Below are positions 7,585-41,573 of a DNA stretch of 64,000 bases, one piece after another. The translations under genes were made by a program, and so were the position numbers. Every line of letters starts with the position of its first letter. Positions within the stretch are counted from its first letter, which is position 1. The DNA is from Bacilli bacterium (GTDB lineage: Bacteria; Bacillota_I; Bacilli_A; RF39; UBA660), in NCBI GenBank assembly GCA_017435485.1, contig JAFSEY010000009.1, positions 1,715-65,714 on the forward strand. Reading direction: 5' to 3'. Below the pieces are notes generated by a model, which was not told the origin of the DNA, made no database searches, and saw only the letters and a list, made by a program, of their open reading frames with translations.

Positions 7585-7704
7585 ATTTATCTCCCATATA
7601 TTTTATGGAATGAAAACATTTTAGCTTATTACAAATGTCTTTATTTTTTTAGAAATTTTTTTGTGTATCTCTTGCTTGTTTTTTTATTCAAGTATAGATT
7701 TACA

Positions 7705-8533
7705 ATGTTATACCATTTCATATTCTTTAGCTAATATTCTATCATCAGAACAATATTCCATAATATATTTATCATTTTTCTTAACAATTATTATCCCTAT
7801 TGTTTTATCATCTTCATTTGTTTTAATATTTTTGTCAATGTAATTCATATAAGTTTGGATCTGACCAATATGCTCTTTTTTCAGTTCAGTTATTTTTAAT
7901 TCTATTACTACATAACACCTGAATTTAATGTTATATAAAAGTAAATCTATATAATTATATTTATCTCCTAATTTAATTTTGTACTAATTTTCTATAAATG
8001 TAATCCATTACCCAATTCTTTCAAAAATGATGGAATATCTTCTAAAATTAATTTTTGTAATATCTTTTCGGATATACATTATCTATTAACTTATTTCTAG
8101 TTTCTTTTGGTAATCTTTCGTATTCGTTAGATTTTATTGCATCTTGTAATTGCCTTTTGGAAAGATTTCTAACTGATACTTGCTTGATATAGTAATTTAT
8201 TTTATTAACATCTTTGATTGGCAATAAAATTAAACAATGACTCCAACTTAATTGTTGCACCAGTGGTGCGACTTTTTCGCTGCTAAACATATTGTAAAAC
8301 TGTTTCATTCTAAATAATGTACTACGATTGTATTTTTTACCTACTTCAATCATTAATTTTTTAGAATATTCATTAATAATATTATCCCCATATGTTCCAC
8401 CAGCTTCATTAAGTAATTTACCTATTTCAAAATATGTAATAACTCTATGTCTTTCTTTTGAATAATCTTTTACTTTTGAATATATTTCATTATCAATTAA
8501 TTTATTTTTTATTTCATTATAATAATTCATCAT
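7705..8533 (-). pseudogene. Decayed YhcG-like (DUF1016 / PDDEXK nuclease) gene; the N-terminal domain is intact as a 161-aa ORF and the C-terminal nuclease domain is broken by stops and frameshifts
   Basis: ORF 8048..8533 ends with LSWSHCLILLPIKDVNKINYYIKQVSVRNLSKRQLQ, which is the N-terminal domain of YhcG. Downstream on the minus strand another frame encodes DLLLYNIKFRCYVVIELKITELKKEHIGQIQTYMNYIDKNIKTNEDDKTIGIIIVKK (PDDEXK D...ELK core), separated from the N-terminal part by stop codons. Confidence 0.45.
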
Positions 8534-8653
8534 CGACTTATCCCCCTCAAAAATTTATAGTAAGAAAAAGAAAAACTTGTTATTAAAAAGTTTTTCTTGT
8601 ACTACTAAGTTTTTTTACGCGCTACCCATAAGAGAATGTTAACTTCTTGTCTT

Positions 8654-9127
8654 CTATGTTTTTAATTTTAATTCTTCAAGTTTACGCATTATTTTATCTA
8701 TATCAGTATAAAATACATTTATGTTTTTTTCTTTAAGCTTTAATAACTTTTTAAAATCTCTAGTTATTTCATTTTTTAGTTTATCAATAACTTTTGCTGG
8801 TATTTCGTTAACTTTATGAACATGATCAATATATTCTTCTAAAGTTGGAAAAGCATTCTGCAATAATATAGCATGATCCACACCCATTATTTCTCTTATT
8901 AAGATTGTATTACAAAAGCCATATCTGGTTATTTTTTTATCAATTATTTTTTGATATTTATCAACTTTAGAACTAAGGGGAATAAACCATAATATCCCAT
9001 TATCCCTTATGGTAAAATAAGTTGGTCTTTGTTTACCTCTCTCATGATTTTGCATCAATGTTTTGTCATCAACAATATAAAAAAATTCATCTTTTATATG
9101 GTATAAATAGCCTGGTTGAATTTTCAT
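8654..9127 (-). CDS. ToxN/AbiQ-like endoribonuclease toxin candidate (type III toxin-antitoxin)
   Basis: The 157-aa protein has GILWFIPLSSKVDKY, which resembles the GHKYLAPLTSPKK core of ToxN/AbiQ. It sits immediately downstream of a tandem repeat array plus terminator on the same strand, which is the canonical toxIN architecture. Confidence 0.5.
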   Translation of the reverse strand: MKIQPGYLYHIKDEFFYIVDDKTLMQNHERGKQRPTYFTIRDNGILWFIPLSSKVDKYQKIIDKKITRYGFCNTILIREIMGVDHAILLQNAFPTLEEYIDHVHKVNEIPAKVIDKLKNEITRDFKKLLKLKEKNINVFYTDIDKIMRKLEELKLKT

Positions 9128-9149
9128 TTTGCCCCCTATAATTAATTTT

Positions 9150-9190
9150 ATAAATAAGAAAAAGAAAACTATTTATAAAGAGTTTTCTTA
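9150..9190 (-). terminator. Rho-independent terminator between the repeat array and the toxin ORF
   Basis: The stem 9164-9170/9181-9187 (gaaaact/agttttc) is followed on the minus strand by a U-rich tract. Confidence 0.5.
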
Positions 9191-9197
9191 TTTACTA

Positions 9198-9295
9198 CCG
9201 GGATAACTTATTACTCGCACCACCCGAGAGCGAGAAACATTGACAATCGGGATAACTTATTACTCGCACCACCCGAGAGCGAGAAACATTTCCTA
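9198..9295 (-). ncRNA. Tandem direct repeat of two 49-nt units; candidate ToxI-like antitoxin RNA
   Basis: Unit 1 at 9198-9240 and unit 2 at 9247-9289 are 43/43 identical (cgggataacttattactcgcaccacccgagagcgagaaacatt). The array is locally GC-rich, contains an internal ctcgc...gcgag stem, and lies upstream of the toxin ORF on the same strand. Confidence 0.45.
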
Positions 9296-9364
9296 TATTA
9301 GGATATGCAATCGCAGAATATTATTCCTCAATTACATTTATAAAATATCATATAATTTACATAA

Positions 9365-9399
9365 AGTAAAGAAAAAACAAATGATTTTATTCATTTGTT
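9365..9399 (-). terminator. Rho-independent terminator of the coupling-protein gene
   Basis: A 9-bp stem (aacaaatga/tcatttgtt) with a 6-nt loop lies directly after the stop codon and is followed by a U-run on the minus strand. Confidence 0.55.
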
Positions 9400-11679
9400 T
9401 TAGTCTTCGTCATCAAAGAAATCATCAAAAAATTCATCATCCGAAATAACATTTTCTTTTACAACTATACTGTCTTTGTCAACATTGATAATTGGTTTTT
9501 CAGTTTCAATTTTCTTTTCTTCTTTGATTTCTGATTTATTCAATTTTTCAGTTTTTATTTCAGGAGTTTCTTCTATCGAAGGAAGGACTATTTTGGGAAT
9601 TTCAGTTTTATCTTCTGTTTCTAAAGTTTTTTGTTCTTCTTTAGTCACATTTGCTTTTTCTTCTTTTTCCTTCTCTCTTCTTTCTTCCTCTTCTAATTCT
9701 TTAATCTTTTTATCGATATCTTTCATCATAGCATCGATATCCATATTAGATAAAGCATCACCAGTACCAGGCATGCCAAAAGGATTTGGTGTAGGACGAG
9801 GATTCATCCCTCCCATTGGATTCATACCTCCTCCAAAAGGTAATCCTGCATTTGGATTTGACATTGGTCCAAATGGACTTCCAAATCCTCCACCCATAGG
9901 TGGCATTCCAAAGTTAGGACTAAATCCTGGTTGATTTGGCATATTAGCATTTTTTTCTAACATTTGTTTTTTCTTTTCTTCAGTTACATAAGCTTTTAAA
10001 TCAAATAACTGAATTTCTTCTTTTTTTCTAGTTGGGAACTCAGCTATTGATGATTCGATTCCCCATTTCATTTTAAAGTTAGGTTCTAACTTAGTTTTAA
10101 ATGGATGAGTTCTTAATCTAATAATAATTACTTGTCCTAGTTTTAATTTTTGTAAATCCGATACTGTAATTAACGGAGTTGAAGCAGTTTTATCTTTTTC
10201 TTTAGATTTAACTTCTCCACACATTTCACTAATTTCTTTTAAAGCAGCTATTTCAGTACTAATTAAATAAACTAAATTACCGCAATTTCCTTTAATAACT
10301 TGCGCAACTTCTTGACCATAAACATCGTTTAATTGCGCAAAGTTTTGAATAATAAATGTAAAACGAATATCTCTGCTTCGAGCAGCAGATACCATTGAAT
10401 CAACGTCTTTTAAAGGTGGCATGTTGGCAAACTCATCTAAAATAAAGTTTGTTCTATATGGTAATTTACCACCATTTTCTTGAGCAACGTCAATTAATGT
10501 TTCATAACATTGTTTTATAAAAATAGTCATTAAACTATGATAAGTTTTCTTTTCATCATGGATAAGTAAAAATACTGCAGTTTTTTTCTTACCTATATCA
10601 GTCATCTCAAAATCACTATAAGCTAACATTTCACTTAATGATTCACGAGATGAGAATAATCTTATCTTTTGTCTAAATGTTGATAAGATACCACCTTTAG
10701 TATCTGTTGGTGCATTAATAGTATTACTAGCAAAAATATATGGACTTGAGGATTCCCCTTTTAATTGAAAATATTCTTTAATATAGTTACTAGTTGCATA
10801 TCTTTCTTCTCCAACTGTACTCATTAGATTGATACTATTTAAGTTTACTTCTCTTTCTTTAGCATCTTCAAATAGACCTAGTGCTAAACCTGAAAAGTAG
10901 TCAGCAGCACTCTTTTCCCAGAAGTCAGAATCACTTTTACTAGTTGGATCATATAAAATATTTAATGCGACGTCATCTAAAAGCTCAGTAGCTTTATCCT
11001 TATTACCTTTTATGTAGTATTCATATGGTAAGTGTAATGGATTCCAGGCATTACCATTTTGAGTATCACGGAAGTTTAGTAATATGATATTATAACCACG
11101 ATCTTTTAACATGTTTCCACATTCACGATATAACTCACCTTTAGGATCGGTAATAATCATACTTTCGCCCTTTTTAGCAAGTAAGTTTACCATCGGTTTA
11201 ACAATCATTTCTGATTTACCAGATCCAGTAGATCCAATAACTAAGTTATGATAATCACTATTATCTACCCATAATTCCTTAGAATTATTAATTAAAGGAA
11301 TACCGGCTGCATCAAGATTTTTAGCTGAAGGATTAACTTTAGTTGCTCCTTTACTTTTTTTAATTTCATCTTCTTTAGCCCATCTAGAATATCCATCTGA
11401 ACCTTTCTCTTTAATAGTTAAACCAATACCGCCACTTTTATCACGGCTAAAAATATATGATGATACACTTGTAAATATAATAATTAATGCTATAACAAAC
11501 ATTGCTATTGTCACTGGTAAATATGGCATTAGAAAAGCTCTAAAAGGAAGCAGACCATAAAAACGTCCTTCTGTTGTCAAAGAAGTAAAATTAAGTACTG
11601 CTATTGCACATAAATAAAGCAATAAAATGCAATAAAGTACAAACAACAAAAAATCTTTAGGTTCAACTTTAAATTTCAT
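9400..11679 (-). CDS. Type IV secretion coupling protein, VirD4/TraG/TraD family
   Basis: It has N-terminal transmembrane helices, a Walker A motif (LVIGSTGSGKSE), ITDPKGELY, and a Walker B-like FILDEFANMP. An unusual C-terminal tail contains a Pro/Gly/Met-rich repeat, a charged coiled coil, and an acidic DDEFFDDFFDDED end. Confidence 0.85.
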   Translation of the reverse strand: MKFKVEPKDFLLFVLYCILLLYLCAIAVLNFTSLTTEGRFYGLLPFRAFLMPYLPVTIAMFVIALIIIFTSVSSYIFSRDKSGGIGLTIKEKGSDGYSRWAKEDEIKKSKGATKVNPSAKNLDAAGIPLINNSKELWVDNSDYHNLVIGSTGSGKSEMIVKPMVNLLAKKGESMIITDPKGELYRECGNMLKDRGYNIILLNFRDTQNGNAWNPLHLPYEYYIKGNKDKATELLDDVALNILYDPTSKSDSDFWEKSAADYFSGLALGLFEDAKEREVNLNSINLMSTVGEERYATSNYIKEYFQLKGESSSPYIFASNTINAPTDTKGGILSTFRQKIRLFSSRESLSEMLAYSDFEMTDIGKKKTAVFLLIHDEKKTYHSLMTIFIKQCYETLIDVAQENGGKLPYRTNFILDEFANMPPLKDVDSMVSAARSRDIRFTFIIQNFAQLNDVYGQEVAQVIKGNCGNLVYLISTEIAALKEISEMCGEVKSKEKDKTASTPLITVSDLQKLKLGQVIIIRLRTHPFKTKLEPNFKMKWGIESSIAEFPTRKKEEIQLFDLKAYVTEEKKKQMLEKNANMPNQPGFSPNFGMPPMGGGFGSPFGPMSNPNAGLPFGGGMNPMGGMNPRPTPNPFGMPGTGDALSNMDIDAMMKDIDKKIKELEEEERREKEKEEKANVTKEEQKTLETEDKTEIPKIVLPSIEETPEIKTEKLNKSEIKEEKKIETEKPIINVDKDSIVVKENVISDDEFFDDFFDDED

Positions 11680-11738
11680 AAGCTCTGCTCCTTTTTTTAC
11701 TATGATTATTATACTATAAAAATTTTTTTTGGCAAATA

Positions 11739-12584
11739 TTATTTAAAAGTATCCTGTAATACTAAATTTGAATACATTCCATTTAGATTATATAGAGATA
11801 ATTGATAACCAGTATCACTAGGATAATAACAAGTAAACATTAAATATTTAGTTAAATCTAATTCAAAATATTCTGCTAAACTCACAGCGCAACTTACATC
11901 CGATGTGTTTTTATAAATTAAATTAGGTTGCTTTATATAGTTTATAAATGCTATAGAAAATTCTGGATAACTATATTCTTCTTCTAAACCATTAACTAAA
12001 CTAACCATATATAAACTTTCTCTTATCCCATCTTTATTATAATCCGATGTGTTTTTGTTTATCGATAAAATATTAATGTCATATGTAATACCTAAATTGT
12101 CAAGGTATTTACTAATAATAATCTTATCTTCTTCTGTAATTAATTCTTCATCTAGGCTAAATCTATTGAACTCTTTAGTTGTATTAACACCTAGAATCTT
12201 TTCTGTTATGTTTATTTTATTATTTGTATTATCATAAATATACCAACCATTATTAAATACCGCTGTGTAATTTCCTAATAGATTTGAATTATCATAAATA
12301 GAAAATTGTTTTTTTAATAATATGTCATCATTTGCACTATTCCAATTTGATATCGTTTTAGTAATAATAGCTCCATCTTCAATAAATAAAATTGCTTCTA
12401 TTTTTTCATTTTCTTCAGGTTCATTATTGATTGATGGTGGTGTTGGAATAGGATCTTTAGTTGGATTATTATCTTTATTGTTTATTGAATCCTTATCAAA
12501 TCCAAATATCACTAGCATAACAATGAAATATACCAAGACAATACTCCCAAAAATAATTATGGGTTTAATATTAACTTTATTCAT
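11739..12584 (-). CDS. Membrane-anchored hypothetical protein associated with the T4SS-like cluster
   Basis: It has one N-terminal transmembrane segment and a Pro-rich linker, with no recognisable catalytic motif. It lies between the hydrolase and the coupling protein. Confidence 0.35.
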   Translation of the reverse strand: MNKVNIKPIIIFGSIVLVYFIVMLVIFGFDKDSINNKDNNPTKDPIPTPPSINNEPEENEKIEAILFIEDGAIITKTISNWNSANDDILLKKQFSIYDNSNLLGNYTAVFNNGWYIYDNTNNKINITEKILGVNTTKEFNRFSLDEELITEEDKIIISKYLDNLGITYDINILSINKNTSDYNKDGIRESLYMVSLVNGLEEEYSYPEFSIAFINYIKQPNLIYKNTSDVSCAVSLAEYFELDLTKYLMFTCYYPSDTGYQLSLYNLNGMYSNLVLQDTFK

Positions 12585-12597
12585 TTATAACTCCTTT

Positions 12598-14574
12598 TTA
12601 TTGATTTATACATACTTTATCTATATATGGTAATGGCTTTTTATCACCGTAATCAGTATAAACATCTCCATTTTGAGCTCTTGATGGATTCCACATCATT
12701 AATTTGGTCCACCCATTCGCTTCAGTTGATGCTACATCCAAGACAACAAAATGAGTACCTTTTCCTGCTCCAGGATTTTTTACTTGCATAACAATAGCAC
12801 AATTAGGTGTTACAGCTGCTTTAATTGCAGCAATTTTCTCTGTTTTTGATCCAGACAAATAAATTCTTCCATTACCATCCGAAGTTACAGAACCACTTGG
12901 TACAATACTTTGTATTGCTGTAGTTCTAGTTGGTTCTCCTACTAATCCCCCGCCAGGATAAAAAGCATTTTGTTTTTTTAATGCTTTAGCAAAAGTACCG
13001 GGGTTAAATTCTTCAAGTGTTGTTTCAGCTCCTAAGGAAGCAAATGATATGGCAATCGATGTTACATAACATCCAATATCTTTCATAGTCGTCCCTGATG
13101 CAGTTCCCAAAGAAAAACTTCCCCATTCTTTAGCTCCCTGCTTCCAGTTGGCATAATCTCCTGCTGCAACAGTATAATTAAATGTTACTTCGCCTGAGGC
13201 TATTTGAACATTACCGGCTCCATAAGTTTCAATGATTATTTCAGTATAGTCGCTTCCATTTGTTCCTGATGTTATAATTTTTGTTTTTATATCATCTGTT
13301 AAACTAGTTGCATACGGTTTTGAGTTATTTGAAGCATCTTTTAAATATTTACCTACTACTGTTGCTGATATAGATTCTAAAGAGTCTATTTCTGTTTCAG
13401 ATAGTGCAATATCTTGCCATACTACAGCACCTTCTGTTTCCGCATTTACCTCTGGACTATAAATAATGGTTCCGTCTTCTTTTTCTAATTTATAAGCTGT
13501 TTTTTCATAATCCCAATATATTAAATTGTTACTAGTAGTATTTACAGTTACAGTTTTTGTGGAAGTATTTAATCCTAATGTACCATCATCAGTCATTGAT
13601 AATAAATTATTACGATTTATAATTAATGCGGCTTTAAAGGCTTCTGGATTAGAAGTTATTACATCTTTTCCAAGTTGTGCAACAGTTGCTCCCATTATAT
13701 ATTTTTCAAACGGCACTACTTCTAAGGTTTTAGTATTATCACTATTTAAAATCTCAACTTTTAAATTTTCAATTTCTACACCATTAATTGAATATTTAAC
13801 ACTAGCACCTGCTACACCGGATGTATTTCCCATGGATACGTCATCGCCCACTGCTCCAGCAAAAATACATAGCCCAAATATTAAAACAGCAAAAAATATT
13901 ATTCCTAATGTGACTGGCCAATTGGTAATTGCTAATGAAATTAATTTAGCTGCCCCTTTTAAAGCAACTTTGGTACCTTTGACTGCTGCTTGCCCTGCTT
14001 TTTTTGCACCTTTGGCAGTTGCTTTCCCAGCTTTTTTCGCAGTATTTTTAGCTACTGTTTTTGCTTTACCTTTTAATTGATTTTTAGCATATTCTAAAGG
14101 ATGCATTGTTTTAAAAGCCTTTGATTTAGCATTATTTATTTTATTTTGAAACTTAGCGTTTTTAGCATCAAAAACTCGCTTATTGTCTTTGGCTTTATCA
14201 ATAATATTTTTATTTTTTGTAATAGGATCTTCACGAAGCTTTTTTCCTGTATTAGGATCTCGCATCACTTTTCCCGTATCTTGATCTCGTTTAACTTTAC
14301 CTTTTTTTTCTTTAGTTCCTTTAGCTCTTTCAGCCTTAGCATCCTGTAAATTTTGATTTAATCTTTCTTTTTCAGCTTTATAATGATTGTTATTATATTT
14401 TCCATTTTCATCTCTAGCTGCATTGTATTCATCCTCACCAAATCTTTTTTTCTCTTGTTGCTGACCTTGTTCTTCATCCATAGATTCAGTTTGGTCTTCT
14501 AATTCATCATTTCCAAGTTCTTCCAATGAATCTATATCATCTAAAAAATCATCTTCATGCATCAATCTCACCAC
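12598..14574 (-). CDS. T4SS-associated cell-wall hydrolase candidate (papain-like Cys peptidase / CHAP-like C-terminal domain)
   Basis: The N-terminus is acidic and then Lys-rich (KKAGKATAKGAKKAG), followed by one transmembrane segment. The C-terminal domain has a candidate Cys (KDIGCYVTS) and His (GTHFVVLDV) pair. Position and architecture parallel CwlT, TcpG and Orf14. Confidence 0.45.
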   Translation of the reverse strand: MVRLMHEDDFLDDIDSLEELGNDELEDQTESMDEEQGQQQEKKRFGEDEYNAARDENGKYNNNHYKAEKERLNQNLQDAKAERAKGTKEKKGKVKRDQDTGKVMRDPNTGKKLREDPITKNKNIIDKAKDNKRVFDAKNAKFQNKINNAKSKAFKTMHPLEYAKNQLKGKAKTVAKNTAKKAGKATAKGAKKAGQAAVKGTKVALKGAAKLISLAITNWPVTLGIIFFAVLIFGLCIFAGAVGDDVSMGNTSGVAGASVKYSINGVEIENLKVEILNSDNTKTLEVVPFEKYIMGATVAQLGKDVITSNPEAFKAALIINRNNLLSMTDDGTLGLNTSTKTVTVNTTSNNLIYWDYEKTAYKLEKEDGTIIYSPEVNAETEGAVVWQDIALSETEIDSLESISATVVGKYLKDASNNSKPYATSLTDDIKTKIITSGTNGSDYTEIIIETYGAGNVQIASGEVTFNYTVAAGDYANWKQGAKEWGSFSLGTASGTTMKDIGCYVTSIAISFASLGAETTLEEFNPGTFAKALKKQNAFYPGGGLVGEPTRTTAIQSIVPSGSVTSDGNGRIYLSGSKTEKIAAIKAAVTPNCAIVMQVKNPGAGKGTHFVVLDVASTEANGWTKLMMWNPSRAQNGDVYTDYGDKKPLPYIDKVCINQ

Positions 14575-14603
14575 CTAAATATATTTAAGTTCAAAAAGAA
14601 GGA

Positions 14604-16388
14604 TTATAATCCTCCTCCTGAACCAAAGAAATCTAACTCTTCTTGTGTTGCAATAATTTGAACTCTCATTCTTCTATTACCACATACAAATAATCCATCA
14701 CCTTGATTATAATATTTTATACTTTCTTTTTCATTTTCGTTTAAATCAATTAATTGCGATAAATCTTCGACTGCTTGTTTTTTTAATCCCATAACTAAAT
14801 AATAAGCAGCATTATCAAATATAGCTTTACCATGAACAATTACTCTTGGATCTGCAAAATCTGTTGGTTGTTGAGTAATGATAATTGTACCAGTATTATA
14901 CTTTCTACTACGTCTTTGAATTTGGGCTAAGAATTCAGCTCCAAGTTCATTATTACCAGCAAGTAATACGTGAGCTTCATCAACCATCATTACAGTGTTA
15001 ATATTACTATCTAAACATAGGCTCCATGCATACTTTAAGATATTAAAGAATAAAGCATTTTTAATATTAGAATCACTATTCATTAACTCTTTGATATTAA
15101 ATACAATAAAATCACTGTCTAATTGAATTGTTGTATGTCCTGTAAAAAAATAACGTAATTCATTAACTAATGGACGGATTTTAAGTTCTAATCTTTCCAT
15201 TACATCTCTTTCATGAGTTGCATCAGTCATTGATAATAATTTACCTTTAATTGTTGCATACACATCATCAAATGTTGGATAATCAGCTGATGTTAATTTT
15301 GTAAAATCAGTGTTAACATCAATTTTATAACGTTTATATGTTTCTGTTACAACATCTGTAAACATTGCTAAAACATCATCTTCAATACTTGGAGAATAAT
15401 ATTTCATAAAAGCTTTTAATTGCTGTAAAGTTTTAGCTAAAACAGTATAACCTAGGCCTTGAGCAATTTCATCTTCATCAATATCTAAAACAACTTCTAG
15501 TGGATTTATCATACCTAGTTGTCCACCACTACCTAAATCGATAAAGTCTCCTCCAACAATATCACACATGTTTTGTAATTCACCTTCAGGATCAATACAA
15601 ACAACTTTATATCCATTTCTTAAGTGGCTTCTAACAAGTAACTTAGCAGCAGTTGATTTACCACTACCAGCAGAACCTAAAATAATAATGTTTGCGTTAT
15701 TACGATTATTTTCCTTTTTTATTTGATATAAGAATTGATTGAATAAAATTACTCCTCCGGAGAAATCAACACCTAGTAATGTAGAATTTCCTGGGTCTTT
15801 AATGCTATCAAAAACAAATGGATACATTGCCGATAATGTAACAGATGGAATTGGTGTTCCAATTCTATTTTCAATATCTTGGCTTGGGAAAATTGGAATA
15901 ATAGACTTTAATACTTTTTCTTGTTCAAACATTAAAGATATTCCACGCATTCCGTAACGATCTAAATGATTACGTACATGCATTTTCTTAAGTTCCAAAT
16001 CTTCTTTATTATCAGCAGTAATCATTAAATGCATTTGAAAATCGAATATACGAGCTTGAGTAGCTGCTAACATCGAAATAAATTGTTCTAATGATTCATA
16101 ATCTAAACGAATGCCTTCTTGAATTGTATTATCTTTTTCATTTTGATAACGCATCTTTAGTTCTGCTACTTCTTTATTAAGCATTTTTCTAATTGTGTCA
16201 AATGGCATTGGAATATGTTTAATAGCTAACTTGACACCACCGATAGCAGTAATATCTGCTAAGTATCCTACCGGAACAGCTTTTGGAAAAGCAATAACAG
16301 TCATAATCGTACAATATTTACCACCTAAAACAAATTCAGTTGGTTTAAACTCCATACCTTTTGGAGCAACTTCACTTTTTAATCCCAT
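14604..16388 (-). CDS. VirB4/TraE-family T4SS ATPase
   Basis: It has a Walker A motif (ILGSAGSGKST), VVCIDPEGE, and a Walker B motif (MMVDEAH). Its 594-aa length is consistent with VirB4-family proteins of Gram-positive conjugation systems (ConE, TcpF, Orf16). Confidence 0.85.
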   Translation of the reverse strand: MGLKSEVAPKGMEFKPTEFVLGGKYCTIMTVIAFPKAVPVGYLADITAIGGVKLAIKHIPMPFDTIRKMLNKEVAELKMRYQNEKDNTIQEGIRLDYESLEQFISMLAATQARIFDFQMHLMITADNKEDLELKKMHVRNHLDRYGMRGISLMFEQEKVLKSIIPIFPSQDIENRIGTPIPSVTLSAMYPFVFDSIKDPGNSTLLGVDFSGGVILFNQFLYQIKKENNRNNANIIILGSAGSGKSTAAKLLVRSHLRNGYKVVCIDPEGELQNMCDIVGGDFIDLGSGGQLGMINPLEVVLDIDEDEIAQGLGYTVLAKTLQQLKAFMKYYSPSIEDDVLAMFTDVVTETYKRYKIDVNTDFTKLTSADYPTFDDVYATIKGKLLSMTDATHERDVMERLELKIRPLVNELRYFFTGHTTIQLDSDFIVFNIKELMNSDSNIKNALFFNILKYAWSLCLDSNINTVMMVDEAHVLLAGNNELGAEFLAQIQRRSRKYNTGTIIITQQPTDFADPRVIVHGKAIFDNAAYYLVMGLKKQAVEDLSQLIDLNENEKESIKYYNQGDGLFVCGNRRMRVQIIATQEELDFFGSGGGL

Positions 16389-16390
16389 TA

Positions 16391-16945
16391 TTACATCACC
16401 GTCCCAAAACTAGTATTAGCACCATCGTTAAAGAAATTATCTAAAATTACTCTTAAATCGTTATTAGAAACTTGAACCGAATTTAATCCAGCATTGGCTA
16501 AATTCATAATTAAATTACGTAATTTCTTTTGAACTATTTCTAATCTCTTTTCTTTAAATAAAATAAAATATTCTGTATCAACAACGCCATATTCTTGACC
16601 AGCAAACATATTTCCTTTGTTAATATCTTGCATAATTAATTTACGAGCAATTGGATTAGGGTTGTTATTATATAATAATTGTAATTGAGACATATAAACA
16701 TGAATATCTACTGGACGATCTGCTACAATTAACCAAAATTCATAATCAATTGTGTTGTAAAAATTACGAAGGGCTGCTAACGCTGAATCTTGAGCTCCCT
16801 TTTCTAAAATAAAGATATTTTTAGGAGCAATTTTTACTCCACTTACATATTGTCCATCATCTAATTGGATCATACCATTTAAAATTTGTTTAATTGGTAA
16901 CCAATCCTCTGTATATTTTTCTCCACTATTTTGTGTCGTCGCCAT
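16391..16945 (-). CDS. T4SS-associated cytoplasmic protein of unknown function (probable start at the internal MATTQNSG)
   Basis: The track ORF 16391..17002 overlaps the upstream gene. The internal Met at 16945 gives only a 20-nt overlap, typical of translational coupling. Confidence 0.35.
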   Translation of the reverse strand: MATTQNSGEKYTEDWLPIKQILNGMIQLDDGQYVSGVKIAPKNIFILEKGAQDSALAALRNFYNTIDYEFWLIVADRPVDIHVYMSQLQLLYNNNPNPIARKLIMQDINKGNMFAGQEYGVVDTEYFILFKEKRLEIVQKKLRNLIMNLANAGLNSVQVSNNDLRVILDNFFNDGANTSFGTVM

Positions 16946-17252
16946 ACCACACACACCAACCTTTCCATTTATAGCTTTTTTGCTTAAAAATAAATGTAAC
17001 AATATTAATGATTAATTGTAATATATTATGATAATGAGGCACTGGCATTACTAAAAAAGCTGATACTAATGCCGGTGCTAAAATCATCATCAAAGTTTTA
17101 AATTCAGTTGAATTAATTACTAACAACATTATTACTGTGGTTAGTACTCCAAAACCAAATATAAACAAATCAACCATTGTAAAATAACCTAATATTAATC
17201 CAGAACGTTTAGCATTTGCTGGAATTAAATAAGTTTGTTCTTCTTGTTCCAT
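16926..17252 (-). CDS. Small two-transmembrane protein, VirB3/ConD/Orf17-like by position and topology
   Basis: It is 108 aa with two hydrophobic helices and lies immediately upstream of the VirB4 gene, as in ICEBs1 and Tn916. Confidence 0.4.
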   Translation of the reverse strand: MEQEEQTYLIPANAKRSGLILGYFTMVDLFIFGFGVLTTVIMLLVINSTEFKTLMMILAPALVSAFLVMPVPHYHNILQLIINIVTFIFKQKSYKWKGWCVWYGDDTK

Positions 17253-17270
17253 ATATTATCTCCCTTTTTA

Positions 17271-19523
17271 TTATTTTTTCTTTTCAGAATCTTGTCTTTC
17301 TCTTTCAAACTTAGTAATAGCTGCTTTTAATTCTGTTTTTCTTAAGTCTGATTCTGTTCCAAATGCTTTGAATTCATCACTATTAACTGTTATAGAAGCT
17401 TTTACTCCATCCAGGGTGAATCCAGCTGCTTGAACTGCAGGACTGGCAATATTCTTTTCAAGTAAATTCTTAAATTCAACGGCACTTTGTCTAATATCTC
17501 CCAAATCTCCTGCGAGACTTTTATTGACTTTGATAAAGCGATCCCATTCATCATCACTAACTAAGGCTTGATTTTGAATTGCATCTTGTAGCAATTTTTG
17601 ATCATTTGCAAATTGTTTTTGTAAGTAGGCGTATTCTTCACTACGTCCTCCAGCTTGAGCTGCCTCCATTTGAGTTTTTGTTGCTCTTAAATCGTTAACA
17701 TCTAGTGTTTTAATGTTACCACTAGTATTAATTTTTTCAATCAACCTATTTAAAGACTGAATTTCAGCATCTGAATCGGATCTACCGCTAGCTTTCATAG
17801 TTTCTACAATAGATTCTAATTCCTTACGTTGAGCAGTCATATCCACAACACATGTTATACCTAAACTTGAACTAGCTTTTGATAACTCTTTTGTAATTAA
17901 TCCTTCAGCTGCAGTACGAGTTCCTTTTTTTGCTGAACCCATTTTTTCTAAGTCTGCTAATTCAGCTTTTGCATCTTCAACACTATTAATTCCAAAATAG
18001 TCACCAACTCTTCTAACTGTATCTTTTGCATGCCCACTAATACTTCCCCAAACAGTTCCACCATGACTAGCCTTATATCCTTTTCTTTCAACAGCTTTTT
18101 CACCAGCTTTTGTTGCTCCCTTTCGGGCGTGTTCTCTCATTCCTTTTACATCATTAGTATCTTTCCCAAAAGATCTAACTCCACCAGACACAAAACCTGC
18201 CGCTCCTCTAAGCAAGCCTTCTCCAAGTCCAGCAGCAATACCACCAACTCGCATCCTTCTTTGCTCTCCTTTAGAATATAAAATTGGAGAATCAGAGTTT
18301 AATTTTTCTTTGACCTTATTTCTATAAGAATTATTAGTGAATCCCCCCACTGCATTTCTAATCCCTGAAGTTAGAGCACCGCCAACCATAGCTCCACCAA
18401 TGAATGCACCACCAGCTGCTAGCTTGTCTTTAATGCCCATACTCATATTTTTACTGTCAATACCAGTTATTTCACTTATTAATTGTGGTGCTTGTTTTGC
18501 AAACATTAAACATCCCATTATTAATAACGCTCTTAATATTCTTGTTGTAAAATATCCTGCTCCCTCATCTATAACCCCCTTATTAAATACAACACAAATA
18601 ACTCTTATTAGATAAACCATTAAGAATAATATTGCAATTCTTAATAAAGCTTCAAAAAAAGTTGTTAAAGTTACTTTTATCCATTTTTTTAACATATCTT
18701 TTTTCCCTGGTATTATATCAGCCATTGCAGGAAGTGGCGCTATAATTTCATAAAATGCTAATTTTACTAATCTTAAAGCTAAAGACAAGCAGTAACTAAT
18801 CATCATATAAATACAAAATCCACCAGCAACTAATGCAAATACCCAATTATAGACTATATATCCATCATTTCTTGTTTCCTCATTAATTATATCGGCATAT
18901 AATTTATAATGATTAAAATTCCCGTCAGCTACAACCATATCATGAATTTCTTGATACTTTCTTCCTCCATAATTAAAGTTGTCAATTTCCTCTTGAATAG
19001 TTTCATTATCTTTGTTTTCTTCTACTACATATGGATAGAAAAATGACTCAAATATAGTTATTGAAATATCAATCCCAGCTTGTTCGATAACCTCAGCAAC
19101 GGTTTGTTGATTTCCTGTTTGAGAAACTAAATATTCATTAGATGAATTTGAATCATTAGTTCCAAGAATGATTTTTCCTATTGTGTTTTTTTCTAATAAA
19201 GAATCTTGAACAACAAATGCAAATTCAAACGCTGTTGGAACAATCGCTATAACAACGATTGCTTTTATAACATCTAAAATTATTTTTCCAGCTCCACTTT
19301 TGTCTTTCGCATCGGGATTTACTATAGTTCTTAACATTGAATATGCTAAGAAAAATAACATTACTACGCCTATTACTGTGTACATTCTGCGGATAATAGG
19401 AGCCAATACATTATCTTCACTACTAAATATATTTAATTTTGCCAAATACAGAAAAATATTATATAACGCTGCTATACCGCTATAAATCCAGCTTACCACT
19501 TCAATCAAAAAATTATTTATCAT
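17271..19523 (-). CDS. VirB6/TrbL-like polytopic membrane protein with a long C-terminal soluble domain (ConG/TcpH/Orf15 analogue)
   Basis: It has six or more transmembrane helices in the N-terminal 370 aa, a Gly-rich segment (AAGGAFIGGAMVGGALTSG), and about 350 aa of hydrophilic, partly coiled sequence. Confidence 0.55.
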   Translation of the reverse strand: MINNFLIEVVSWIYSGIAALYNIFLYLAKLNIFSSEDNVLAPIIRRMYTVIGVVMLFFLAYSMLRTIVNPDAKDKSGAGKIILDVIKAIVVIAIVPTAFEFAFVVQDSLLEKNTIGKIILGTNDSNSSNEYLVSQTGNQQTVAEVIEQAGIDISITIFESFFYPYVVEENKDNETIQEEIDNFNYGGRKYQEIHDMVVADGNFNHYKLYADIINEETRNDGYIVYNWVFALVAGGFCIYMMISYCLSLALRLVKLAFYEIIAPLPAMADIIPGKKDMLKKWIKVTLTTFFEALLRIAILFLMVYLIRVICVVFNKGVIDEGAGYFTTRILRALLIMGCLMFAKQAPQLISEITGIDSKNMSMGIKDKLAAGGAFIGGAMVGGALTSGIRNAVGGFTNNSYRNKVKEKLNSDSPILYSKGEQRRMRVGGIAAGLGEGLLRGAAGFVSGGVRSFGKDTNDVKGMREHARKGATKAGEKAVERKGYKASHGGTVWGSISGHAKDTVRRVGDYFGINSVEDAKAELADLEKMGSAKKGTRTAAEGLITKELSKASSSLGITCVVDMTAQRKELESIVETMKASGRSDSDAEIQSLNRLIEKINTSGNIKTLDVNDLRATKTQMEAAQAGGRSEEYAYLQKQFANDQKLLQDAIQNQALVSDDEWDRFIKVNKSLAGDLGDIRQSAVEFKNLLEKNIASPAVQAAGFTLDGVKASITVNSDEFKAFGTESDLRKTELKAAITKFERERQDSEKKK

Positions 19524-19539
19524 ATTATATTACTCCTTT

Positions 19540-20862
19540 TTAGTTTAATCCGCAGGTGTTATAAGCACCTAACAACGATAATATAAAGTTTATTAGTACC
19601 GGAAGAAAGAATATTACAATTGCTGCAATTAATCTTTTTACTGCTGTTGTTGCCGATTTTTTCAATTGGTCTTTATCTTGATTAATTGTTGCTTTTATAA
19701 AATCCATTGTACTTAAGGCAAACACTAAAATAATTGCACCATACTTCATAATATTAAGTGTTAAGTCTAAATAATAAGCTGGTTCGCAATCAATTCCAGT
19801 TGGACATTCTCTATTTCCTAAAAAACCTTCACAGCCTTCTTCTCCGCCCCAATCTAATTTATGTTTCCCAACACTTTGAATACGCAAGTTAGCATACTCA
19901 CCTAGACCCTCAGTGAGTTCATCTAAATTTTCGGCAATATTACCACTGTATTCCTGTCTTAGTTCATCAGTTAACGAAGCATCGTTTTTTAAAACTTGCT
20001 CACACGATTCATAAGCCAAATCAAATTTTGTGTTAACTACTTCCGCAACTTTATTAAATGATTCCGTATTCAATAAAAAATCTGGAATATCTTCCACTTG
20101 CCAATCGCTACGAATAAAATATGATTGGATTAATTGTTTTTTTATTTGAGTTTCTATTTCTGTAATGTATTCAGTTACTATTCCATTTTCATCTTCCCTT
20201 TTATTTTTCAAATTATTACAAAATGGATTTTCTGCTAAACTTTTATCTGGATAAACTGAAAAAGTTACTGTAAGATACTTATCTAACATTGAGTTAATTA
20301 CTTTTTCTTGTTCTGACATAAAATCAAAGGTTCTTTTTACTTCAGGTTTAAGATACCAATAATATTGACCAAATCTGCTAGAATATCCTTCTTCAATTTT
20401 ATTATAATAAAACATTGGTGCTCCACTACCGTTTGGTATAGCGTTTTTTGTAAAAATATACTCTGGACATTGAAATTTTTCAAACATAACTTTCAAATCA
20501 TCATCGCCATAATACCCATCGCCAGTTTTTAAATTATTAGTAGTAAATCCTGCATCCTTACCTGCAATTCTTTTAATTCTTACGACACCATCTGATCCAA
20601 GATACTCATAAACTAATTCATACTTTTTTTTGTTAACAGAATAAAAAACAGTAGAAGTTATATTATATACAACAGTACTTGCGTATGTTTTTTGAGGATC
20701 AAATGGCTTATCCTCCAATGAAGAAGTAGGAATTCTTAATACGGTATTTTCCCATTGACACACTTTTGTCGCATCTCCATAAGAGGAAGAGAGCTCAGTT
20801 GCTTCAACAAAAATTGGGCAAAAAATTGTTAACAAAAATAATAATTTTAATTTTTTTTTCAT
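19540..20862 (-). CDS. Secreted protein (Sec signal peptide) whose C-terminal ~75 aa is a copy of the two-helix membrane module found in ORFs 20871..21248 and 49235..49666
   Basis: It has a signal peptide MKKKLKLLFLLTIFCPIFVEA and a Cys-containing ectodomain. The C-terminus ...YGAIILVFALSTMDFIKATINQDKDQLKKSATTAVKRLIAAIVIFFLPVLINF aligns to both small paralogs. Confidence 0.5.
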   Translation of the reverse strand: MKKKLKLLFLLTIFCPIFVEATELSSSYGDATKVCQWENTVLRIPTSSLEDKPFDPQKTYASTVVYNITSTVFYSVNKKKYELVYEYLGSDGVVRIKRIAGKDAGFTTNNLKTGDGYYGDDDLKVMFEKFQCPEYIFTKNAIPNGSGAPMFYYNKIEEGYSSRFGQYYWYLKPEVKRTFDFMSEQEKVINSMLDKYLTVTFSVYPDKSLAENPFCNNLKNKREDENGIVTEYITEIETQIKKQLIQSYFIRSDWQVEDIPDFLLNTESFNKVAEVVNTKFDLAYESCEQVLKNDASLTDELRQEYSGNIAENLDELTEGLGEYANLRIQSVGKHKLDWGGEEGCEGFLGNRECPTGIDCEPAYYLDLTLNIMKYGAIILVFALSTMDFIKATINQDKDQLKKSATTAVKRLIAAIVIFFLPVLINFILSLLGAYNTCGLN

Positions 20863-20870
20863 AAACGCAC

Positions 20871-21248
20871 CTACTCTGTAAATATTCCATCTTTATCATT
20901 TATTTTGCATGTAGATGGTTCTTTTAAACAATTCGTTAAGCAATCAAATTTTTTTGTTTTATCAGCACCATCTACTAATGACATCACCGCGGTTATTACA
21001 TAAGGAATAAAGAAAATCACCACTGCTGCTATTGCCTTTTTCACTAAAGAACTAATAGCTATTTTAATTGCTTTGTCGTCATTTGATAAGACTGCTTTTC
21101 CTAATTCAAAAGATCCAAGTCCTATTAAAAGAATTGGAATAACTATTTTTAAAAATATAAATATATATCCAAGTATTTGAAATGTTTTTAATAAACCACT
21201 TTGATCACAAATTGCAAAGTCAGCTAACGTAAAAATTTTTTCCATCAC
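20871..21248 (-). CDS. Small two-transmembrane protein, member of a three-paralog pilin-like family (first gene of the T4SS-like cluster)
   Basis: It is 125 aa with hydrophobic helix 1 (FQILGYIFIFLKIVIPILLIGLGSF), a conserved motif ELGKAVLSNDDKAIKIAISSLVKKAIAAVVIFFIPYV, and a Cys-containing tail. Confidence 0.5.
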   Translation of the reverse strand: MMEKIFTLADFAICDQSGLLKTFQILGYIFIFLKIVIPILLIGLGSFELGKAVLSNDDKAIKIAISSLVKKAIAAVVIFFIPYVITAVMSLVDGADKTKKFDCLTNCLKEPSTCKINDKDGIFTE

Positions 21249-21306
21249 AAACCTCCAAAAGATTTATATTCTTTGACATAATTATACAATAAAAAAATAG
21301 CTTATG

Positions 21307-21846
21307 CTATCTTTTTTTGTTGTTTAGATGAAAATATTCTTCTAAAGTTAAGTAATCTCCACTATTATAAAGTTCTTTTGCTAAATTTTTACCGACATAT
21401 CTAAAGTGCCATGGTTCATATTTATAACCAGTTATATTCTCTTTTCCTTTCGGATATCTTAATATAAAGCCATATTTATAAGTATTGTTATATAACCATT
21501 TATATTCTTTACGATATTTTTTTATTAATTTAGATTCCGTATTTATTAAATCTATTGCCAGTCCAGTTTGATGTTCGGAATGACCAGGCATAGCTAAGTA
21601 TTTTTTGACATTTTCGACATTATCAACTCGTAGATATTCTTTTAATAATTTTTGTTGATATTTATAAGATCTATAACCACTGACAATATTTAAATTAATT
21701 TTATCTTTTTGAGCTGCTTGCCACATTACATCATATTGTTTTAATAATTCTTTATTTAGTTTTCGTGGATTAAAAAATCTAGATAATCTATAATTTTTGT
21801 TAACTATTAGTATTTTTTCTTTATTAAATTTAACATACTTTTTCAC
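21307..21846 (-). CDS. VanY-like D-Ala-D-Ala carboxypeptidase (peptidase M15B)
   Basis: The zinc ligands and motifs SGYRSYKYQ, AMPGHSEHQTGLAIDL and EPWHFRYVG are present. Confidence 0.8.
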   Translation of the reverse strand: MKKYVKFNKEKILIVNKNYRLSRFFNPRKLNKELLKQYDVMWQAAQKDKINLNIVSGYRSYKYQQKLLKEYLRVDNVENVKKYLAMPGHSEHQTGLAIDLINTESKLIKKYRKEYKWLYNNTYKYGFILRYPKGKENITGYKYEPWHFRYVGKNLAKELYNSGDYLTLEEYFHLNNKKR

Positions 21847-40947: not shown

Positions 40948-41371
40948 TTAATAAGTGTCTTCCATATATTTCATAAATAGCATAAATAAGAGCAGTTAGC
41001 AAAGCAAATCCTATTAGTAATTTAAAAATTGTTCCTAAGGGAATTAGTTCTATAATAAAAGTTACAAATGTAATAATAAAACTATTTAATAAAGGAAGCA
41101 TTATTTTTAAACTATTATAATTTAAGGAATTTCGATCCAATTTAAATTTATAAACTAAATATTCAACTTCTCCTATTTTGCTTGGTTCTTTTTTCTTGCT
41201 CTTTTTATTATTTTTTTTCTTTTTACCTAATATTTCATCAACAGCTGGTTTAGTAAGAAAAAAGTAATGAAGAACAAAAATAACTAAGTAAATTACTAAA
41301 AACGATAAAATATAGTAAGCAACATTATTCATATAAAATCCTCTTTCTAAATAAAAAAACATTCCTCCCAA
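40922..41371 (-). CDS. Small membrane protein co-transcribed with leuS
   Basis: It is 149 aa with three hydrophobic helices and a Lys-rich loop, and overlaps the leuS start by 26 nt. Confidence 0.4.
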   Translation of the reverse strand: MGGMFFYLERGFYMNNVAYYILSFLVIYLVIFVLHYFFLTKPAVDEILGKKKKNNKKSKKKEPSKIGEVEYLVYKFKLDRNSLNYNSLKIMLPLLNSFIITFVTFIIELIPLGTIFKLLIGFALLTALIYAIYEIYGRHLLNVERKRGN

Positions 41372-41573
41372 AGGACGAATGTTATCGTGGTACCACCTTA
41401 TTTTTTTCTCGTTAATCTATAAAGGAATTACCCTAACACATCCAAAAGTAAGTTCATCAATTTCTTTTCTTAGTTTTCACCAACCACTAAGTCTCTACAA
41501 AAAGAAGTTTTGATTACTACTCTTTTATCCGCTGCTTAAAACTATTATACATAATTGTCTTTTTAAAAGCAAA
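41372..41573 (-). promoter_or_regulatory. T-box riboswitch leader (Leu) for the membrane-protein-leuS operon
   Basis: The minus-strand RNA contains AAGGUGGUACCACGAUAACAUUCGUCCUUUGGGAGGAAUGUUUUUUU, a T-box sequence with an overlapping terminator hairpin. An upstream candidate specifier loop ...GAACUUAC contains a CUU codon. Confidence 0.6.

Follow-up and report, generated by a model that had tools for sequence, protein, structure and literature searches.

A probable, intact type III toxin-antitoxin cassette of the CptIN family from uncultured Bacilli of the gut

The CptIN locus of Eubacterium rectale is the closest described relative of the element reported here, a minus-strand cassette of antitoxin repeats (cptI) and a toxin gene (cptN) carried on a 64,000-nt stretch of contig JAFSEY010000009.1 (assembly GCA_017435485.1), part of a Bacilli metagenome-assembled genome (MAG). 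Throughout, "the window" denotes that whole stretch. For E. rectale the CptIN mechanism is established: the toxin processes the antitoxin RNA to single pseudoknots, each pair of toxin molecules is bridged by these RNAs in a closed 2:2 ring with its active sites occluded, a terminator keeps the antitoxin in excess, and the RNase is freed once transcription is lost (PMC4627078). CptI-Er is a 45-nt H-type pseudoknot with a 5′ tail AAGUUU, a first stem (S1), a one-base loop (L1), a second stem (S2) and a loop L2 (AUAUAAAUG) with a kink at U30, and its 3′ end at A45 bears a cyclic phosphate (PMC4627078). The cptI units tabulated in 2012 from 33 loci measured about 40-48 nt and occurred in 1.9-3.4 copies, and Blower et al. 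described CptI sequences as not alignable with each other (PMC3401426); a 2025 survey of tenpIN loci describes cptI repeats as mostly perfect (PMC12283969). In E. coli, CptIN-Er increased plasmid retention from about 50% to 100%, and over 200 coliphages were unaffected by it, a negative result that its authors note is limited by the heterologous host (PMC4627078; PMC3401426).

Other type III families offer further points of comparison. ToxIN of Pectobacterium atrosepticum and Bacillus thuringiensis (2XDB/2XDD, 4ATO) and AbiQ/antiQ of Lactococcus follow the same logic as the locus in the window, in which a repeat-encoded pseudoknot RNA is processed by, and inhibits, a Kid-like endoribonuclease of related fold (4ATO, TM about 0.67), with a terminator setting the ratio of the two products. 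ToxIN forms a triangular 3:3 complex where CptIN forms a 2:2 ring, its toxI units are shorter and more numerous (P. atrosepticum, 36 nt x 5.5), and abortive-infection activity has been demonstrated for ToxIN and AbiQ, not for CptIN. TenpIN (Photorhabdus luminescens; PMC3401426, PMC12283969) resembles the clade of the window locus in having about two long units (39-57 nt) that often differ from each other and carry an A-stretch in their second half. Its toxin belongs to another family, however; no TenpN similarity was detected, and the NCBIfam match of the window toxin is specifically to CptIN.

We find that the locus is very probably an intact type III toxin-antitoxin cassette of the CptIN family, encoded on the minus strand. 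Compared with CptIN of E. rectale (4RMO; PMC4627078; family, PMC3401426), the homology of the toxin extends from end to end (29% identity, TM 0.84), two tandem units lie upstream of it on the same strand, a terminator separates repeats from toxin, and the toxin carries a Ser-Ser-basic loop; the host differs, being an uncultured low-GC lineage of gut Bacilli. Our confidence in the identity of the locus as CptIN is high, and its functionality is graded somewhat lower because of the promoter issue considered below. In terms of classification, this is a further member of an already described family, a known kind of system. A preliminary description, made from the letters of this DNA alone, had recognized a type III architecture of repeat RNA, terminator and Kid/ToxN-fold toxin, and those elements are all present on the minus strand. 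Along that strand, the stretch between 9600 and 8400 comprises, in order, the last part of a 759-aa open reading frame (ORF; stop codon 9402-9400), a hairpin with a T-run, a very AT-rich spacer of about 75 nt, two repeat units, a second hairpin, GGGGG and the toxin ORF. The elements of the locus, all on the minus strand, are as follows.

9318-9323, minus strand: candidate -10 box TAATAT, the likely positional equivalent of TATATT in the upstream regions of 60+ relatives
9291-9303, minus strand: small leader hairpin UCCUA-AUA-UAGGA directly 5′ of unit 1, from RNA folding
9241-9289, minus strand: cptI unit 1, 49 nt, AUGUUU-CUCGC-UC-UCGGG-UGGU-GCGAG-UAAUAAGUUAU-CCCGA-UUGUCA (nhmmer, E=1.8e-14)
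9192-9240, minus strand: cptI unit 2, 49 nt, with S2 3′ arm CCCGG (a U-G wobble, not U-A) and 3′ tail UAGUAA
9151-9194, minus strand: terminator-like hairpin between antitoxin and toxin, from inverted repeats, folding and the canonical terminators of relatives
9132-9136, minus strand: ribosome-binding site GGGGG, 4 nt 5′ of the ATG; GGAG or GGGGG at the same position in relatives
8654-9127, minus strand: cptN toxin gene, 157 aa, ATG at 9127, predicted endoribonuclease (NCBIfam, PDB, hhalign, AlphaFold2, Foldseek)
8563-8603, minus strand: terminator hairpin 3′ of cptN, an inverted repeat with 20-nt arms, 85% complementary, and a U-tract

The toxin and its family

The 157-aa protein matches the NCBIfam equivalog NF047359 ('type III toxin-antitoxin system CptIN family toxin') with E=5.5e-44 and a score of 149.6 bits, the cutoff being 90, and the match spans model positions 1-150 of 150. 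A phmmer search of the PDB returned a single real match, to CptN of E. rectale (4RMO; E=4e-16, residues 8-151), and comparison by hhalign of a profile of 53 relatives with CptN-Er gave a probability of 99.2%. Structure points the same way. The AlphaFold2 model (pLDDT 88.9, pTM 0.85) has 4RMO_A as its best PDB match in Foldseek (TM 0.84/0.85, rmsd 2.2 Å, 29% identity, E=1.3e-10), with ToxN of B. thuringiensis second (4ATO; TM 0.65-0.69, E=1.1e-3, 14% identity) and MazF and CcdB next. The preliminary description had made its reading depend on a ToxN/Kid-like fold, and the model matches 4RMO, 4ATO, MazF and CcdB. From this fold, CptN is predicted to be an endoribonuclease of the Kid/MazF/ToxN type.

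Where that description spoke of a ToxN/AbiQ-like ORF, its recognition of a type III toxin holds, and the family is a different one: CptIN, a sister of ToxIN/AbiQ. The motif GILWFIPLSSKVDKY on which it relied aligns to GIYWMIPLSSRIDKY of E. rectale CptN, and its assignment to ToxN/AbiQ has to be given up. The catalytic loop IPLSSKVDKY aligns with IPLSSRIDKY of CptN-Er, so that S52-S53-K54 is the counterpart of the S51-S52-R53 catalytic triad (PMC4627078). Among 53 relatives, S52, S53, K54, Q90, N91, H102 and H104 are invariant.

The protein is already in the databases, under the label 'hypothetical protein' from a Bacilli MAG, and at least five contigs from independent samples encode it. Homologues in the protein database number 2,590 at E≤0.001. 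A scan of one genome per species yielded at least 269 relatives, and the best 80 (L001-L080; 61-73% identity) were taken as the related loci. Every one of these 80 comes from an uncultured MAG of gut Bacilli, 'Tenericutes' or Erysipelotrichaceae, from rabbits, humans, ruminants or chickens. A collection of 50,697 phage records contains no cptN homologue, and plasmids contribute only 8 homologues, all distant (30-39% identity). Within the window, 161- and 157-aa ORFs at 50.7-51.7 kb were considered as a second cptN copy and rejected: the sizes are equal, and there is no similarity.

Antitoxin repeats and their pseudoknot

A repeat search resolved two tandem 49-nt units at a spacing of 49, with 94% identity over 49 nt and the same 42-nt core in both. 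The family profile sets the register at 9289-9241 and 9240-9192 (nhmmer, E about 1e-14 each). The preliminary description had the array right, and its interval of 9295-9198 was shifted by approximately 6 nt from the 9289-9192 of the profile. It also noted, correctly, that the repeats are GC-rich and that they contain an internal ctcgc/gcgag stem. Their G+C content is 46.9%, when the window as a whole has 27.4% and the sequence directly on either side about 19-20%, and the stem is present in each unit at unit positions 7-11 and 23-27. In unit 1, S1 pairs 9283-9279 with 9267-9263, and S2 pairs 9276-9272 with 9251-9247.

For comparison with E. rectale, the 45-nt sequence of CptI-Er was rebuilt from a primer in Table 2 of PMC4627078; it agrees with the published residues G13, A27-G35, U30, G44 and A45. 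The window unit shares its plan: the 5′ tail has 6 nt and ends in GUUU, S1 has 5 bp, L1 is short, S2 follows, L2 is A-rich and the last base of the 3′ tail is A. The A-U-A-A-A/G-U of L2 in the window unit can be set beside A29-U30 (kink)-A31-A33-U34 of CptI-Er. The two differ in length (49 versus 45 nt), in the linker between S2 and S1 (UGGU versus about 1 nt) and in the size of L2 (11 versus 9 nt).

Folding of the repeat RNA into a pseudoknot had been suggested as something to look for, and the family alignment bears it out. We assembled 94 distinct aligned units, took the model from the window sequence (S1, CUCGC/GCGAG; S2, UCGGG/CCCGA) and scored it by explicit counting of pairs. Standard pairs occupy 96.4% of the cells of the H-type pseudoknot, a share that drops to 20.8-49.4% once the 3′ partners are shifted by 1-3 columns. 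Double-sided changes were found in 8 of the 10 pseudoknot pairs (120 cells), and 0 of 500 shuffles reached the observed values. All five S2 pairs covary, a clear case being column 19-43, with GC:55 and AU:39. Covariation across the 94 units supports both crossing helices. RNAalifold, which cannot represent pseudoknots, for that reason recovers helix 2 (S2) only. Within the A-rich L2 loop, which in the CptIN family makes an A-minor twist, A30, A32, A33 and A37 are invariant, and the run A30, U31, A32, A33 is invariant or nearly so. A junction consensus A^AUG(U) is kept at all three boundaries: where unit 1 starts, where the two units meet and where unit 2 ends. At the position of the leader hairpin, alignments of upstream regions show that relatives carry a hairpin of other sequence, GCAYUU..AAGUGC.

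The arrangement is widely shared. Exactly two homologous units, with periods of 49-51 nt, lie upstream of the toxin gene in 74 of the 80 related loci, and because of this recurrence the order of repeats, terminator and gene is far beyond chance. Over all loci we counted 108 cptI arrays, 93 of them with a cptN homologue within 400 nt on the 3′ side. The predominance of two units (97/108 arrays) is compatible, at most, with a 2:2 complex. In 56 of 73 two-unit loci, the units of one locus differ in their helix-2 arms by compensatory changes, each unit pairing with itself, and helix-2 pairing averages 4.84/5 in cis versus 3.95/5 in trans. This sets the clade apart from published cptI arrays, whose units are described as near-identical; in the window itself the cores are identical.

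Orphan cptI arrays account for 15 of the 108 (L003, L009, L016, L050, L052, L056, L063, L073-L079). Some are followed by a 55-aa cptN fragment and others by housekeeping genes (DnaG, MurC-like, choloylglycine hydrolase), and they often lie just downstream of an intact cptIN. Such arrays may be remnants of tandem loci, or free-standing antitoxins.

Expression signals and genomic setting

Between the antitoxin and the toxin gene, hairpin arms at 9194-9183 and 9162-9151 are complementary at 12 of 12 positions; the core, GAAAAC/GUUUUC at 9187-9164, is AT-rich and is followed by UUUUUCUUAUUU. A rho-independent terminator had been placed here earlier, at 9190-9150. Its hairpin and U-rich tail are present, and a simple terminator scan did not call it because that scan requires at least 3 G-C pairs, which we judge to be a limitation of the tool and not an absence of the element. 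At the equivalent position relatives have a clean intrinsic terminator (GAAAACUUUAUC...GAUAGAGUUUUCUUUUU), and the repeat-to-toxin spacers fold with z < -2 in 50 of 67. The hairpin at 9194-9151 presumably sets the ratio of antitoxin to toxin transcript.

Past the terminator U-tract and ahead of the ribosome-binding site of the toxin gene, 45 of 67 relatives also carry TGnTA(T/C)A(A/C/T)T, a motif that resembles an extended -10; in L001-L080 this TGnTATAMT element sits 15-30 nt upstream of that site. The motif suggests that the toxin may have a separate promoter, unlike the single-promoter paradigm of ToxIN. In the window, the corresponding position (9145-9152) reads TATAAA/TAAAAT, without the TG.

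The gene upstream of the cassette encodes the coupling protein (T4CP) of a type IV secretion system (T4SS; Pfam T4SS-DNA_transf, E=2.4e-52). The terminator that the preliminary description assigned to it (9365-9399) is a 10-bp hairpin with a T-run at 9400-9368, conserved in sister strains L084, L089 and L091. The features around the cassette are listed below.

9368-9400, minus strand: intrinsic terminator of the T4SS coupling-protein gene, AAACAAAUGA-AUAAAA-UCAUUUGUUU plus U-run, the upstream edge of the locus
8636-9328, minus strand: the cptIN cassette, a discrete indel of approximately 690 bp relative to sister strain L091 (global alignment, intergenic blastn, gene maps)
8600-8640, minus strand: possible degenerate third cptI-like unit (AACAUUCUCUUAUGGGUAGCGCGUAAAAAAACUUAGUAGUA) just past the cptN stop codon; weak (pairwise alignment to the cptI units and to the L091 remnant; nhmmer, 4.5 bits)
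7708-8533, minus strand: broken gene for a YhcG/DUF1016 PD-(D/E)xK nuclease, with a 161-aa ORF at 8533-8048 and a 46-aa fragment at 7848-7708

Gene maps were compared among contigs from other samples that encode an identical rhodanese protein. In these strains the interval between the coupling protein and rhodanese genes (window 7585-9400) is variable and occurs in three states: cptIN with a broken YhcG gene (the window, L086, L088); an intact 297-aa YhcG gene with a single degenerate cptI-like unit and a terminator ahead of it (L091); and a nearly empty interval with scraps of YhcG (L084, L087, L089). Global alignment shows a backbone common to the window and L091 up to ..TAATTGA (9329), resuming at 8635. 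A decayed YhcG-like gene downstream of the toxin had been reported, and Pfam indeed identifies its remains as a 161-aa DUF1016_N piece and a 46-aa YhcG_C fragment. The pseudogene matches the PADLOC candidate system PDC-S02; its intact L091 counterpart is 95% identical, and approximately 65 bp are missing from the window copy. A second, intact YhcG gene lies elsewhere in these genomes, after an HTH_3 gene (L084, L087, L090). The cptI-like remnant upstream of YhcG in L091 (2289-2315) scores 15.5 bits (nhmmer, E=0.008). A module of repeat, terminator and leader thus flanks cptN on either side, and in L091 a chimeric form of it lies ahead of YhcG. Insertion by a single crossover was considered and set aside, as it does not explain the pattern of flanking modules together with the L091 chimera.

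The cassette had been described as part of a defence islet beside the T4SS cluster. This is right only in part: the site is strain-variable, and the association with the T4SS did not stand. We regard the T4SS neighbourhood as incidental, because sister strains lack the cassette at this site and relatives lie beside unrelated, mostly housekeeping genes. Beside cptN in the 80 relatives we found none of T4CP, YhcG, rhodanese, DedA or RmuC except for one YhcG and one distant T4CP, and a conserved T4SS/cptIN or YhcG/cptIN unit was rejected on this synteny. Most of the 136 flanking genes in our census are housekeeping genes (pyruvate phosphate dikinase about 10, DnaG 6), and genes of defence type are few (AbiD 3, PDC-S01 4, AbiQ 1). 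The cassette behaves as an autonomous, horizontally moving module. The single AbiQ-type neighbour matches the PADLOC AbiQ model with E=1.1e-32, and it would put two type III families, ToxIN/AbiQ and CptIN, side by side.

The T4SS-like cluster itself extends over about 9.4-21.8 kb (9400-21846) and comprises T4CP, a VirB4/TraG-P-loop ATPase, a TraC-like protein, large membrane proteins and a VanY peptidase. It is flanked by housekeeping genes and is present in every contig long enough to extend upstream of the T4CP gene (L084-L087, L089). Neither a relaxase nor an integrase was found among the Pfam-scanned genes of the cluster, and an exact-protein look-up of the DUF6568 gene on its far side gave no match. 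The C-terminus of T4CP (9400-9950) is a long low-complexity tail, rich in G/M/P/N and then in K/E, that closes with an acidic FFDDFFDDED end, and the length of the protein varies between strains from 716 to 759 aa in this tail. Elsewhere in the window, a T-box leader (RF00230, 95.9 bits) lies at 41368-41540 on the minus strand, upstream of the leucyl-tRNA synthetase gene (38512-40947); no other Rfam family reaches its gathering score in the window, and no tRNA genes were found in the 64 kb.

Competing readings, proposed mechanism and significance

Several observations weigh against an intact, working CptIN cassette. The promoter announced in the title of the preliminary description could not be verified: a sigma-70 scan of 9368-9290 called none, and that stretch holds no good match. 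Relatives conserve TTGAC(A/T)-N17-TATATT. Under the 2012 criteria for type III systems, a -35/-10 promoter ahead of the array is desirable and not obligatory (PMC3401426). The window keeps only the -10-like TAATAT, with no TTGACA-like -35 upstream of it, where backbone sequence starts; the promoter of the relatives is missing because the left edge of the cassette falls inside the promoter spacer, between the expected -35 and TAATAT. Expression of the antitoxin may be weak, or may rely on read-through from the T4SS operon. In addition, the hairpin between antitoxin and toxin is a homologue of the relatives' terminator whose upper stem is degraded. On the side of the protein, Pfam-A returned two sub-threshold DUF matches only at E≤1, with no ToxN/AbiQ and no model for this toxin, and PADLOC, whose library includes an AbiQ model, returned 0 families at E≤1. 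The catalytic triad of the CptIN family is Ser-Ser/Thr-Arg, and its basic residue here is Lys54 in place of Arg53 of CptN-Er. The residues that specify adenine in CptN-Er, D81, S85 and Y104, align to a gap, to H85 (variable) and to H104 (invariant), and with these altered adenine-reading residues the cleavage specificity may therefore differ in detail from that of CptN-Er. As for the RNA, searches of Rfam with an E-value threshold on the locus and with the gathering threshold on the whole window found no antitoxin family, and weak matches (a snoRNA; OrzO-P at 17 bits versus a gathering score of 60) were dismissed as noise. At 49 nt the unit exceeds the tabulated range of 40-48 nt by 1 nt, and the 49-51 nt of relatives exceed it by 1-3 nt, with the copy number of 2.0 inside the range of 1.9-3.4 (PMC3401426).

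Could the altered expression signals mean that the cassette is a decaying or silent relic, inserted without a -35 and no longer expressed as a working pair? Besides the missing -35, the uncalled promoter and the weakened terminator, the adjoining YhcG gene is broken, deletions progress at this site in sister strains, and relatives often have orphan cptI arrays and truncated cptN genes (15/108 arrays). We nevertheless hold this to be improbable. The full-length ORF keeps every residue that is invariant in 53 relatives, the two units are undamaged, identical in their 42-nt cores and fully paired, the same 157-aa protein recurs on at least five contigs from independent samples, and an intact toxin without a working antitoxin would be counter-selected. 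A stronger version of the earlier interpretation, that the locus belongs to the ToxIN/AbiQ family proper and acts mainly as an abortive-infection phage defence, draws on the second-place match to B. thuringiensis ToxN (TM 0.65-0.69), on a layout of repeats, terminator and toxin common to all type III families (PMC3401426), on the adjoining candidate defence nuclease (YhcG/PDC-S02) at a strain-variable site, and on the few relatives that adjoin AbiD, AbiQ or PDC-S01 genes. Against it, CptN ranks first in both sequence and structure (4RMO at E=1.3e-10 versus 4ATO at E=1.1e-3, with 14% identity to the latter), the CptIN equivalog is far over its cutoff whereas no Pfam or PADLOC family, ToxN/AbiQ included, is reached at E≤1, and 49 nt x 2 fits cptI (mean 44.8 nt, 2.4 copies) better than toxI (38.1 nt, 2.8) (PMC3401426). 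The tested CptIN loci, moreover, gave no phage resistance in E. coli (PMC3401426, PMC4627078), the neighbours of the 80 relatives are mostly housekeeping genes, and the 50,697 phage records hold no homologue; the sequence tests contradict the family membership, and we consider this reading rather less probable still than a relic.

The faintest of the alternatives is that the repeats act at the level of DNA, or as a cis-regulatory leader (protein-binding iterons, an attachment site of the conjugative cluster, an attenuator), and not as an RNA antitoxin. Their location at the junction between the T4SS cluster and chromosomal genes and the lack of an Rfam family match would fit such a role, to which we assign a very slight probability: cptN accompanies 93 of 108 arrays of homologous units, in contexts that are unrelated and lack T4SS genes; two crossing helices are maintained by compensatory changes, which is a mark of selection acting on the RNA fold; and the T4SS cluster is kept without the repeats in sister strains.

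If the locus is the CptIN cassette that we favour, it may operate as follows. A transcript starting a few tens of nt upstream of 9289 would carry the two cptI units and would mostly end at the hairpin 9194-9151; read-through or a weak downstream promoter would give a smaller amount of cptN mRNA, with the terminator keeping the antitoxin in excess. CptN would cut the precursor after A at the unit junctions (..A^AUGUUU), at 9290|9289, 9241|9240 and 9192|9191, cut sites that we infer by analogy with CptI-Er. Each 49-nt RNA would fold into an H-type pseudoknot (S1 CUCGC/GCGAG, S2 UCGGG/CCCGA, A-rich loop UAAUAAGUUAU), and the pseudoknots would stay bound to the toxin, bridging two toxin molecules in a closed 2:2 protein-RNA ring with the active site blocked. 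Once transcription stopped or the RNA decayed, through loss of the DNA or possibly through a phage-induced shut-off, free CptN would cleave cellular RNA and arrest growth.

By analogy with CptIN-Er, the cassette most likely serves its own selfish retention, and that of the DNA around it, by addiction; a phage-abortive role is possible. The presence/absence polymorphism among strains is compatible with either. The remark in the preliminary description that type III systems commonly act in abortive infection is not automatically transferable to this locus: the CptIN systems that were tested stabilized plasmids and gave no phage resistance in E. coli (PMC3401426, PMC4627078).

We also entertain, as a doubtful prospect, that the clade of the window locus runs a variant of type III control, with a fixed number of two units, differing helix 2, a toxin promoter of its own and, in the window, an antitoxin supply coupled to the T4SS. 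Were this true, divergence between units would provide two distinct antitoxin RNAs per 2:2 complex, or would prevent mis-pairing or recombination between units; the TGnTATAMT element could give the toxin its own promoter in place of read-through past the terminator; and the window cassette, having landed without a -35 downstream of the T4SS operon, could have its antitoxin supply coupled to T4SS transcription. The points of mild interest in this work are at the level of the clade (units of 49-51 nt, differing helix 2, TGnTATAMT, orphan arrays), and they leave the classification unchanged.

For this genome the consequence is modest: a selfish, strain-variable addiction cassette, by analogy, with a possible anti-phage role. 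A 'hypothetical protein' of a Bacilli MAG is upgraded to a CptIN toxin with a previously unannotated RNA antitoxin, and the CptIN family, for which 33 loci were known in 2012, has an extensive branch, well conserved, among uncultured Bacilli of the gut. The 94 distinct units provide a secondary-structure model for cptI, backed by covariation, where no Rfam family matches, and with a covariance model of CptI derived from these units such loci could be annotated systematically.

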